The translations under genes and the position numbers were made by a program. From positions 1,556,527 to 1,620,526 of the forward strand of contig NZ_CP021642.1 in NCBI RefSeq assembly GCF_003048375.1: a stretch of DNA of 64,000 bases. Direction: 5' to 3'. Within the stretch, counting starts at the first letter, position 1. Each line of letters starts with the position of its first letter. The DNA is from Campylobacter concisus (GTDB lineage: Bacteria; Campylobacterota; Campylobacteria; Campylobacterales; Campylobacteraceae). A model generated the notes under the pieces. The model was not told where the DNA came from. It worked only from the letters and a program-made list of their open reading frames with translations, and searched no databases. Positions 57,023 through 58,268 of this stretch are shown in pieces.

Positions 57023-58268
57023 ATGTTTAAAAAGATATTGTTACTCGCCATTAGTGCGTTATTTGCATTTGGCGCTGAGGCACAGGTGGGCGAGATAAAA
57101 GCAAGTGACTCGCCCTTTGGTTACGCTAGCATTGGAGCAGAGCAAAATTTTGGCGGATACACCGGCAAAGAGAGTAAAGAAGTCGTCGTAAAAGATAGAC
57201 AAGAGCTTGTAAAATACGCTCAAATGGGTGGTTACGTCATCTATGTGGATGGGCTCATAGACCTTAGCGAAGGCAAGATCCCGCAAAATGGCAATAGCGA
57301 TGGGCTAGATAAATTTATAAGTGAGATTAGCGGTGGCGAGTTTGACACTTATACTAAATTTATGCAGGCTTACGGCGCTTCATGCCATGCAAATTTAGAT
57401 GGTTCGCAAGATCCAAAGTTAGCAGCGCTTCGCAAAAATTTAGCCAACGAATGGAAAAAGCTCATCGTAGTGCCGGTAGCTAGCAATACCACGATAATCG
57501 GCCTAGGCGAAAACTCAGGCATAAAAGGTGGCTCATTTTTGCTAAAAAATGTCCAAAATATCGCGATCCGCAACATGAATGTCCTAGATGCTTTTGATCC
57601 ATTTCCAGATGTACAAAAAAATGATGGCTTTAACGCGCAATATGACGGCGTTAGTATAGAGTCAAGCAAAAACATCTGGGTAGATCACTGCCATTTTAAG
57701 GACACTGTGGATCTTAGCCATGTAAATTTAGCAGGCGGAGAGCTTACTAAATGGCAAACTTACGACGGAGCTGTGCGAAGGGGATAGTGCGGCTATCACA
57801 ATCTCGCACAACATCTTTGAAAACCACGACAAAACGATGCTAATAGGCTCAAGAGACTCAGACGGCAGCAGCGAAACAAGGACGATAACGGTCGCTCATA
57901 ACATTTTTGACAACTGCGCGCAACGCCTACCTATGGCACGCAATGCAAAGGTGCATGTCTATAACAACTTTTACGACTCAAAAGATGGCTTTTATGACCA
58001 AAAATACGCCATTGGCGTGCGCTTTGGCTCGCTAGTATACGCTCAAAACAACTACTTTACAAATGGCGTCAAGATAAGCTACAAATGCAACAAAGGCACC
58101 ATTTTTGAAAGCGGCAACATAGACCTTTCTAAAAAGGGCAGCGTTTGCGAAAAGCTAGACAAACCACCATTTGAGCCTCCATATAAATTTAAGCTCACTT
58201 TGGCTTCAAACGTCCAAAACGAGGTAAATAAAAACGCAGGCACAGGCAAGCTAGCCGTTATAAAGTAA
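57023..58268 (+). pseudogene. family PL1 pectate lyase, frameshifted at a G4 run (57780-57783)
   Basis: Signal peptide. PL1 motifs WVDHCHF, ITISHNIF..HDKTMLIGSRD and RLPMARNAKVHVYNNFY. Two ORFs in different frames. Deleting one G restores a 414-aa protein. Confidence 0.65.

Follow-up and report, generated by a model that had tools for sequence, protein, structure and literature searches.

A probable pseudogene of a predicted secreted family 1 pectate lyase in Campylobacter concisus, and its intact and broken alleles across the species

The DNA analysed here, called the window, is a stretch of 64,000 nucleotides (nt) from the Campylobacter concisus contig NZ_CP021642.1. At positions 57023–58268 of its forward strand lies a pectate lyase gene of polysaccharide lyase family 1 (PL1), which is divided into two open reading frames (ORFs). 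The first, 57023–57787, encodes 254 amino acids (aa), and the Shine-Dalgarno sequence AGGAGG stands at 57011–57016, 6 nt ahead of its ATG. The second continues the gene in frame +1 and has no stop codon from 57732 until the one at 58268; its first listed ATG is at 57837, with no Shine-Dalgarno sequence before it. A sequence-only reading of this stretch, made earlier by a model, had described a PL1 gene with canonical motifs and a frameshift in a Campylobacter-like chromosome, and had proposed a profile search for Pectate_lyase_4 (PF00544). In the Pfam profile search both halves matched this family, the 5′ half over profile positions 9–100 (E 3.3e-12, 46.9 bits) and the 3′ half over positions 123–211 (E 2.7e-19, 70.0 bits). 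Both scores exceed the curated cut-off of 24 bits, above which family membership was counted. All three motifs quoted in that reading were located: WVDHCHF at 57677–57697 in frame 0, and ITISHNIFENHDKTMLIGSRD at 57795–57857 and RLPMARNAKVHVYNNFY at 57924–57974, both in frame +1. The chromosome belongs to the C. concisus complex, the flanking genes having 93–97% nt identity to loci of this complex. The N-terminus, MFKKILLLAISALFAFGAEA followed by Q, fits a Sec signal peptide by inspection of the sequence, with two Lys, a 12-residue hydrophobic core and an A-x-A motif.

The frameshift is real and lies at 57768–57787, but it is not a trivial one, being a complex indel in the Ca2+-binding motif YDGLCDIKGD. 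It was mapped by aligning the gene DNA of the window and of 46 loci to an intact 1251-nt reference allele, that of locus L006 from CCUG 19995. The window differs from this reference by two length differences only: one extra nt at reference position 747 and the loss of six nt at position 756. Where the intact allele has the codons GAC GGA CTA TGC GAC ATC AAG GGG GAT AGT (D G L C D I K G D S), the window allele has GAC GGA GCT GTG CGA AGG GGA TAG. The lesion destroys LCDIK, including the third Ca2+-ligand Asp (D252 of the intact ortholog P0001; equivalent of D227 in the Bacillus subtilis pectate lyase BsPel), and creates a TAG at 57785–57787, where translation ends after 254 codons, the stop being codon 255. 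The 5′ part encodes the first two Ca2+-ligand Asp residues (equivalents of D208 and D248 of P0001) and WVDHCHF, and ends aberrantly with AVRRG before the TAG. The sequences HDK (57825–57833) and QRLPMAR (RLPMAR at 57924–57941) are found only in frame +1, 3′ of the TAG; there the 3′ part encodes ITISHNIFENHDKTMLIGSRD, with the equivalent of Lys272, and QRLPMARNAKVHVYNNFY, with those of Arg303 and Arg308. The rest of the gene contains no further stop or indel.

As a PL1, the window copy is deficient on two counts: the third Ca2+ ligand is gone, and the Lys/Arg set is not continuous with the Ca2+ site. Thus, the copy is a PL1 by descent that is predicted to be unable to encode an active member of the family. 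Repair of the frame alone would still give an enzyme without Asp252 and two further residues. Because a Ca2+-ligand Asp is removed, a stop stands at codon 255 and the Lys/Arg residues are out of frame, no lyase should be makeable in this strain. The same +1/−6 lesion is present in the independent assemblies L034 and L040, and a cluster of 254-aa products with 48 members (P0014) matches it.

A provisionally repaired translation of the window gene was used for the ortholog search against 5.8 billion proteins. It retrieved a full-length ortholog of 416 aa, P0001, with 94% identity to the repaired protein and a cluster of 2719 sequences; further matches from this search carry the name Campylobacter concisus. 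P0001 matches PF00544 (E 9.5e-40, 136.9 bits) and, among the sequences of the Protein Data Bank (PDB), 1vbl (E 1e-48) and BsPel, 1bn8 (E 1e-42, residues 7–412). The fold was tested on this intact ortholog, not on the window product. The AlphaFold2 model of P0001, from a 60-sequence alignment, had a mean predicted local distance difference test (pLDDT) score of 93.5 and a predicted template modelling score of 0.90; residues 1–20, the predicted signal-peptide region, had a pLDDT below 50. The top 22 Foldseek matches of the model in the PDB are PL1 pectate lyases, with best template modelling (TM) scores of 0.75–0.80; pectin lyases, Jun a 1 and VexL, which also have the PL1 fold, take the five ranks below.

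Residues D208, D248, D252, K272 and R303 of P0001 are invariant in the 60-sequence alignment, and R308 is conserved to at least 90%. The HMMER alignment pairs these six residues with D184, D223, D227, K247, R279 and R284 of BsPel. According to published work on BsPel and PelC, D184, D223 and D227 of BsPel are Ca2+ ligands and R279 is the catalytic base; the PelC counterparts of the three acidic ligands are D131, E166 and D170. Judged by homology, the intact C. concisus PL1 has all the features expected of an active Ca2+-dependent pectate lyase. A full-text literature search found no paper on a C. concisus pectate lyase or on pectin use by this species, and no published assay of any C. concisus PL1 allele; in PMC7060259 both search topics appear, in unrelated places.

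The state of the gene was surveyed with one genome per GTDB species, which gave 46 loci in 45 genomes, all from C. concisus or uncultured Campylobacter sp. An intact 1251-nt ORF with an ATG or GTG start was present in 23 of the 45 genomes. The start is doubtful in two others: L018 is otherwise intact and has its ATG, at 6001, changed to ATA, and L023 (near 4894) has lost 1 nt of codon 2 and has a Shine-Dalgarno sequence changed from AGGAGG to GAGAGG. In one genome the gene is split over two contig ends (L030/L049), with no lesion visible. The gene is disrupted in the remaining 19 genomes, 11 of which have the lesion at the site seen in the window.

At this site a net −7 variant is found in L033, L036, L037, L039, L041 and L042, and another variant in L043. 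The allele of L024 (6001–7245; protein P0018) has the net −7 variant plus one extra base, which restores the frame. Its 414-aa product reads YRRNCARDSAAIT instead of YDGLCDIKGDSAAIT, is without two invariant Ca2+-ligand Asp residues, still scores 113.9 bits with PF00544, and may be a catalytically dead beta-helix protein. Truncated products of 272 aa form the clusters P0011 (131 members), P0012 (22), P0015 (22) and P0017 (8), and a truncated product of 256 aa, P0016, corresponds to the +1 insertion alone; all the truncated product clusters break after WQTYDG. The lesions elsewhere in the gene comprise an insertion at 172 (L028); nonsense codons 61 (L029) and 21 (L021); multiple deletions (L031, which also has ATA in place of the start codon, at 6001); a 678-bp internal deletion (L044 and L053); and homopolymer changes at 593 (A7 to A6; L038, also L043), at 412 and 1170 (L032), and at 761 (G5 to G7; L035). 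Since at least six further null mutations beyond the lesion-site alleles are clearly independent, the gene would be dispensable, or its loss favoured, in many lineages. The locus is a species-wide polymorphism, not peculiar to this chromosome, with about half of the lineage representatives intact.

The ratio of nonsynonymous to synonymous substitution rates (dN/dS; Nei-Gojobori method, NG86) among intact alleles is 0.16, with a mean dS of 0.22, and indicates purifying selection on what would be a working protein. In neighbour-joining (NJ) trees of the 5′ and 3′ halves of the gene, the lesion-site alleles are scattered among the intact ones, and the table of single-nucleotide polymorphisms (SNPs) showed no flanking SNP within 150 bp that is associated with the lesion. 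A single clade of pseudogene alleles was rejected, as both trees and the SNP table place the lesion on unrelated haplotypes. The clearest case is L036, whose flanks have the haplotype of the L004 clade, in the genomic context of that clade. Over 22 nt its patch matches that of L033 exactly, down to the SNPs GAT and GCA, which are foreign to its own clade; this clearly points to arrival of the lesion patch in the L036 lineage by recombination. The simplest reading is that the null patch moved, or its flanks were replaced, by homologous recombination in a highly recombining species. An ectopic donor of the patch was also sought: CTGTGCGAGAGATAGTGC, with up to 3 mismatches allowed, has no other occurrence in the window.

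The features at and around the gene are given in Table 1. The left flank, abhydrolase-guaB-amidase-ileS-cinA, is common to other Campylobacter species. In the window and most loci, the order is ileS, cinA, PL1 and then a convergent lipid cluster; both flanks are as described in the sequence-only reading, which had placed the gene as a single unit between a CinA-like gene and a lipid-export cluster. The downstream cluster (58316–63873, minus strand) encodes an HAE3-like 742-aa protein, a LolA2-like protein (LolA2_flexi-like, E 2e-15), a YbgC-type thioesterase, a family 2 glycosyltransferase fused to a lauroyl-acyltransferase-like domain, and an ApeI-like dehydratase. It resembles clusters for aryl-polyene or flexirubin-type lipid biosynthesis and export. 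The 742-aa protein has no Pfam match, and its HAE3 match reaches 26.9 bits against a cut-off of 352.

Table 1. Features at and around the PL1 gene, in window coordinates
Feature	Coordinates	Strand	Basis
cinA/pncC-type gene, 365 aa	55803–56900	+	PF02464, E 1.6e-50; TIGR00199 PncC domain; synteny with L079 and L081–L084
Intergenic leader moving with the PL1 gene, including the Shine-Dalgarno sequence	56877–57022	+	Sequence read; blastn boundaries
Predicted Sec-type signal peptide MFKKILLLAISALFAFGAEA, with cleavage before Q21	57023–57082	+	Sequence inspection; low pLDDT
Predicted PL1 pseudogene, 5′ part, 254 codons	57023–57787	+	Alignment to BsPel 1bn8; invariant columns
Inactivating lesion (predicted), GGAGCTGTGCGAAGGGGATAG; intact alleles, GGACTATGCGACATCAAGGGGGATAG	57768–57787	+	DNA alignment of 46 alleles
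Predicted PL1 pseudogene, 3′ part, open in frame +1 only	57732–58268	+	Profile match; sequence read
GC-rich inverted repeat GCCCCGAG...CTTGGGGC, in the gap between PL1 and the convergent membrane-protein gene	58276–58303	.	Sequence read
742-aa membrane protein, weakly HAE3/MMPL-like	58316–60544	-	TIGR00921, E 1.2e-6, far under its cut-off

The 742-aa gene and the lipid cluster are not part of the PL1 unit. The 742-aa gene does not adjoin PL1 in L008, L027, L042 or the L004 group (L004, L005, L010, L011, L014, L019, L020, L022, L023, L030 and L036). In L008 a gene for a 226-aa protein and topA are downstream of PL1, and in neither L027 nor L042 does the lipid cluster adjoin the gene. In the L004 group, mostly derived from metagenome-assembled genomes, PL1 (about 6001–7251) lies between three genes without Pfam match (435, 300 and 242 aa) and a transketolase gene. 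Homology with the window starts in L005 and L019 at 56877, 23 nt inside the 3′ end of cinA, and the arrangement suggests that the PL1 gene of this group was relocated from the cinA site by rearrangement. In blastn comparisons, the shared unit extends from about 56877/56898 to 58259/58302 of the window and takes in the leader and the gene, to which some loci add the GC-rich hairpin. We infer that the inverted repeat is probably a bidirectional terminator; it is kept together with the PL1 gene in L005, L008 and L028, and a consensus scan of the window did not list it. No gene for uronate catabolism, transport or regulation adjoins PL1 in three contexts (the window, L008 and L004).

The gene is present across the C. 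concisus complex and in L079. Four other Campylobacter species (sp. faydin G-24, C. californiensis, sp. MOP7 and sp. RM16192) keep abhydrolase-guaB-amidase-ileS-cinA; in these four no PL1 follows cinA, and each has a different gene set there. The PL1 of L079 is 70% identical and occupies the same site, with flanks of about 92% nt identity to the window, and therefore the gene would predate the radiation of the complex. At the nt level, PL1 of the window is 76% identical to that of L079 vs 92–93% for ileS, cinA and the 742-aa gene, and 86% identical to that of L027 vs about 95% for the flanks. This divergence above that of the flanks may reflect either fast evolution of a secreted protein or the import of divergent alleles.

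The relatives outside Campylobacter have 43–48% identity over at least 93% of the length. Ten of the 11 named ones are from Treponema, Treponemataceae or Termitinemataceae, including T. pectinovorum. A phylogeny of the best matches, also proposed in the sequence-only reading, was built as a midpoint-rooted NJ tree and placed the Campylobacter PL1 clade on a long branch among Treponema-group sequences. The GC fraction is 0.434 in the gene and 0.400 in the window, with no step in the GC profile. No integrase, transposase or tRNA gene was found among the neighbours, and no Rfam element in the window scans; the plasmid search gave a best match below 30% identity and the phage search none. A mobile-element vector was rejected on these grounds: no close plasmid or phage relative, no tRNA, no Rfam element and no GC anomaly.

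The earlier suggestion of horizontal acquisition fits these data. The gene is restricted to one lineage and absent from the site in sister species, and its nearest named homologs are in Spirochaetota, those of Treponema foremost. A recent transfer does not agree with the data, which show no compositional anomaly or GC step, no mobile-element genes, no plasmid or phage relatives, and relatives that are only about 45% identical. Given the unremarkable GC content and the lack of a close relative on plasmids or in phages, any transfer would be ancient. Then, a lineage-specific ancient horizontal acquisition appears to be the best reading, with a donor that is tentatively spirochaetal.

Two other features of the window may be mentioned. 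An arylsulfotransferase gene (ASST; PF05935 with the N-terminal Ig-like domain PF17425), whose product is periplasmic, lies at 29056–30977 on the minus strand and is split into the ORFs 30069–30977 and 29056–30078. The split coincides with a perfect tandem duplication of 86 bp (two copies, 29993–30164), which shifts the frame because 86 is not a multiple of 3; this gene is a predicted second pseudogene of a secreted enzyme within the window. In addition, the ORF 26697–27590 (plus strand) contains imperfect 24/12-nt tandem repeats (AAAGCTGAGAAAAAAGCTGAAGCT) with an overlapping 39-nt unit at 27168–27358, which would encode a Lys/Ala/Glu-rich repeat.

Taken together, the window gene is very probably a pseudogene of a putatively secreted PL1 pectate lyase that was anciently acquired and repeatedly lost, with a lesion patch spread by recombination in at least one lineage. 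The sequence data show the family, the lesion, the spread of alleles and the synteny directly; substrate, donor and any selective cause of the losses are deduced from them. The ancestral gene would have encoded a 416-aa right-handed beta-helix enzyme, exported by the Sec pathway, which by homology would cleave alpha-1,4-polygalacturonate via beta-elimination. An ancestor of the C. concisus complex would have gained it, most likely from an oral or gut anaerobe, because the closest named relatives are Treponema. The gene would persist as a stand-alone unit of promoter, gene and terminator, under purifying selection where intact and dispensable or disfavoured in many lineages. In this strain, the complex lesion in YDG-LCDIK-GD would leave no lyase made. 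The lesion patch and its derivatives would segregate on unrelated haplotypes, spread by homologous recombination in at least one lineage.

Other explanations concern the lesion itself. The site may be a mutational hot spot, a quasi-palindrome at which template switching or hairpin slippage repeatedly yields complex indels that bring the palindrome closer to perfection, and gives a crude on/off switch, maybe a reversible one. The intact allele has an imperfect hairpin in single-stranded DNA (TGCGAC..GATAG-loop-CTATC..TCGCA, −8.1 kcal/mol), and lesion alleles drop its asymmetric bulge and fold more stably (−11.3 and −11.8 kcal/mol, z −2.7 and −3.4). At least five variants lie within the same 25 nt: +1 only (P0016), +1/−6, net −7, net −6 in frame (L024, P0018) and G5 to G7 (L035). 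Lesions are also found on unrelated haplotypes and in two genomic contexts. However, the new left arm is an unfaithful copy of the right arm, with GCGAGA-GATAG where GCGAGATCGTGATAG is expected; of four intact alleles, two have this hairpin in second or third rank and two do not have it among their five strongest; and the variants can be arranged step by step as descendants of one founder, with transitions added. The donor-specific SNPs of the L036 patch also speak for import, not de novo mutation. As to a phase-variable locus, the G-runs of 4–7 nt are below the length of known Campylobacter phase-variable tracts, the main lesions are complex indels, and Tandem Repeats Finder reported no repeat in the gene. 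A hot spot is, on balance, improbable. Even less credence can be given to a gene that is still functional, through programmed ribosomal frameshifting, transcriptional slippage across 57768–57787 or two polypeptides that assemble. It would agree with two halves otherwise free of stops and indels, the strong Shine-Dalgarno sequence that is kept and a dN/dS that is not relaxed, but the read-through product would still be without LCDIK and an Asp that is invariant in 60 homologs. Besides, the alleles need opposite shifts (the window type would require +1 and the net −7 type −1) and so have no common recoding signal, the overlap has no slippery heptamer or long homopolymer, and no ribosome-binding site precedes the ATG at 57837. 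Two parts of a beta-helix cut in the middle of a coil, with its active-site loop gone, would be unlikely to assemble. A programmed frameshift or split enzyme was rejected on the deleted invariant Asp, the opposite shifts and the second ORF without ribosome-binding site. Hardly credible at all is a sequencing or assembly error in a gene that is truly intact. Frameshifts in draft genomes are often errors, and some of the other disrupted alleles are single-base homopolymer changes, but here the change is a compound insertion and deletion, net −5 nt, outside any long homopolymer. Its architecture is identical in L034 and L040, and the 48-member cluster of 254-aa products and the 272-aa clusters (131 + 22 + 22 + 8) stand against an error as well.

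A different question is the substrate, for which the sequence-only reading had raised host, mucin-like or dietary polyuronates. It may be another alpha-1,4-linked polyuronide met in the mouth or gut, for example a polymer of bacterial capsules or biofilms, or a glycan of the host, so that the enzyme would be a niche or competition factor and not a nutritional one. This is unlikely, though it has several points in its favour: uronate catabolism and transport genes do not adjoin PL1 in the three contexts; Campylobacter is generally asaccharolytic; the PL1 fold includes the Vi-antigen depolymerase VexL (6fi2); and the identity of PL1 to L079, far below that of the flanks, is as for a surface or secreted interaction protein. 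On the other hand, every one of the best matches, in sequence and in structure, is a true pectate lyase, VexL being distant (E 2.6e-6); the Ca2+/Arg catalytic set of pectate lyases is conserved in full; and the closest relatives belong to Treponema that ferment pectin, T. pectinovorum among them. More doubtful still is a combined view in which PL1 would be a strain-variable niche factor. Its loss would be selected in some hosts or sites, a hot-spot null patch would be passed by natural transformation, and the L024 product, P0018, would hint at a second, non-catalytic role, for example in adhesion or the binding of carbohydrates. The pectate-lyase scaffold would in that case serve an asaccharolytic Campylobacter in attachment or cross-feeding, not in its own carbon supply.

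Some points weigh against the preferred reading of an anciently acquired and repeatedly lost pectate lyase. Pectate as the substrate is a prediction from homology. The disrupted calls in L032, L035 and L038 are homopolymer changes of 1 or 2 bases, possibly sequencing errors. The dN/dS of the lesion-site alleles, 0.16–0.20, is not relaxed, which is not the pattern of old pseudogenes; it fits recent or recombination-refreshed ones. The absence from other Campylobacter is based on the named matches of one protein search and on four syntenic loci. The assignment of a donor is tentative, as most top matches are metagenome proteins, the NJ tree is midpoint-rooted and the identity is about 45%.

C. 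concisus is an oral commensal that has been repeatedly linked to inflammatory bowel disease and Barrett's oesophagus. It is asaccharolytic and oxidises H2 and formate, and T. pectinovorum is an oral pectin fermenter. Markers that separate strains of C. concisus are sought, and the state of PL1 would be a functional polymorphism that can be typed by PCR and tested against niche and disease. Because the window copy is a pseudogene, it would be uninformative on the capabilities of this strain itself. The question raised is what keeps a pectate lyase under purifying selection in an asaccharolytic Campylobacter; one idea is that it cross-feeds with T. pectinovorum or other fermenters of pectin.

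Among known systems, the intact C. concisus PL1 is closest in kind to BsPel (1bn8, 2bsp, 2nzm and 3krg) and Pel47 of Bacillus sp. (1vbl), of CAZy family PL1. They belong to the same Pfam family and match it over almost all of its sequence (E 1e-42 to 1e-48), the P0001 model has a TM score of 0.75–0.79 to them, and counterparts of the Ca2+ ligands, K247, R279 and R284 are conserved; the proteins likewise have a single domain and about 400 aa, and secretion is predicted for the C. concisus protein too. The identity is only 28–30%, however, and the host is an asaccharolytic, host-associated epsilonproteobacterium, not a degrader of plant polymers. In contrast to BsPel, the window copy is frameshifted and without the D227 equivalent.

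The PL1 proteins of Treponema (T. pectinovorum, T. zioleckii and metagenome-assembled genomes from gut and rumen) are the closest ones outside Campylobacter and share an oral or gut anaerobic habitat. Many of them have 520–720 aa, Big_2 (PF02368) or other domains, and an N-terminal Cys consensus typical of lipoproteins, whereas C. concisus PL1 is a bare catalytic domain with a predicted type-I signal peptide, and no recent transfer is indicated. The enzymes PelA, PelC and PelE of Dickeya/Erwinia (1jrg, 1air/2pec and 1pcl) have the same fold and mechanism (E 1e-14 to 1e-42). They are virulence factors of plant pathogens, encoded in multi-gene pel clusters with a Kdg regulon; the C. concisus PL1 is a single orphan gene that no catabolic or regulatory gene adjoins.

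In its population pattern, the locus is similar to the segregating nulls of accessory secreted enzymes in naturally transformable and recombining bacteria that are host-associated, with many independent nulls, a null patch on unrelated haplotypes and intact alleles under purifying selection. It differs from a classical phase-variable contingency locus, since it has no long homopolymer or repeat tract and the shared lesion is a complex indel of the active site. The enzyme family is thoroughly known; what is mildly unexpected is its asaccharolytic Campylobacter host and its repeated loss, which would be partly borne by recombination.

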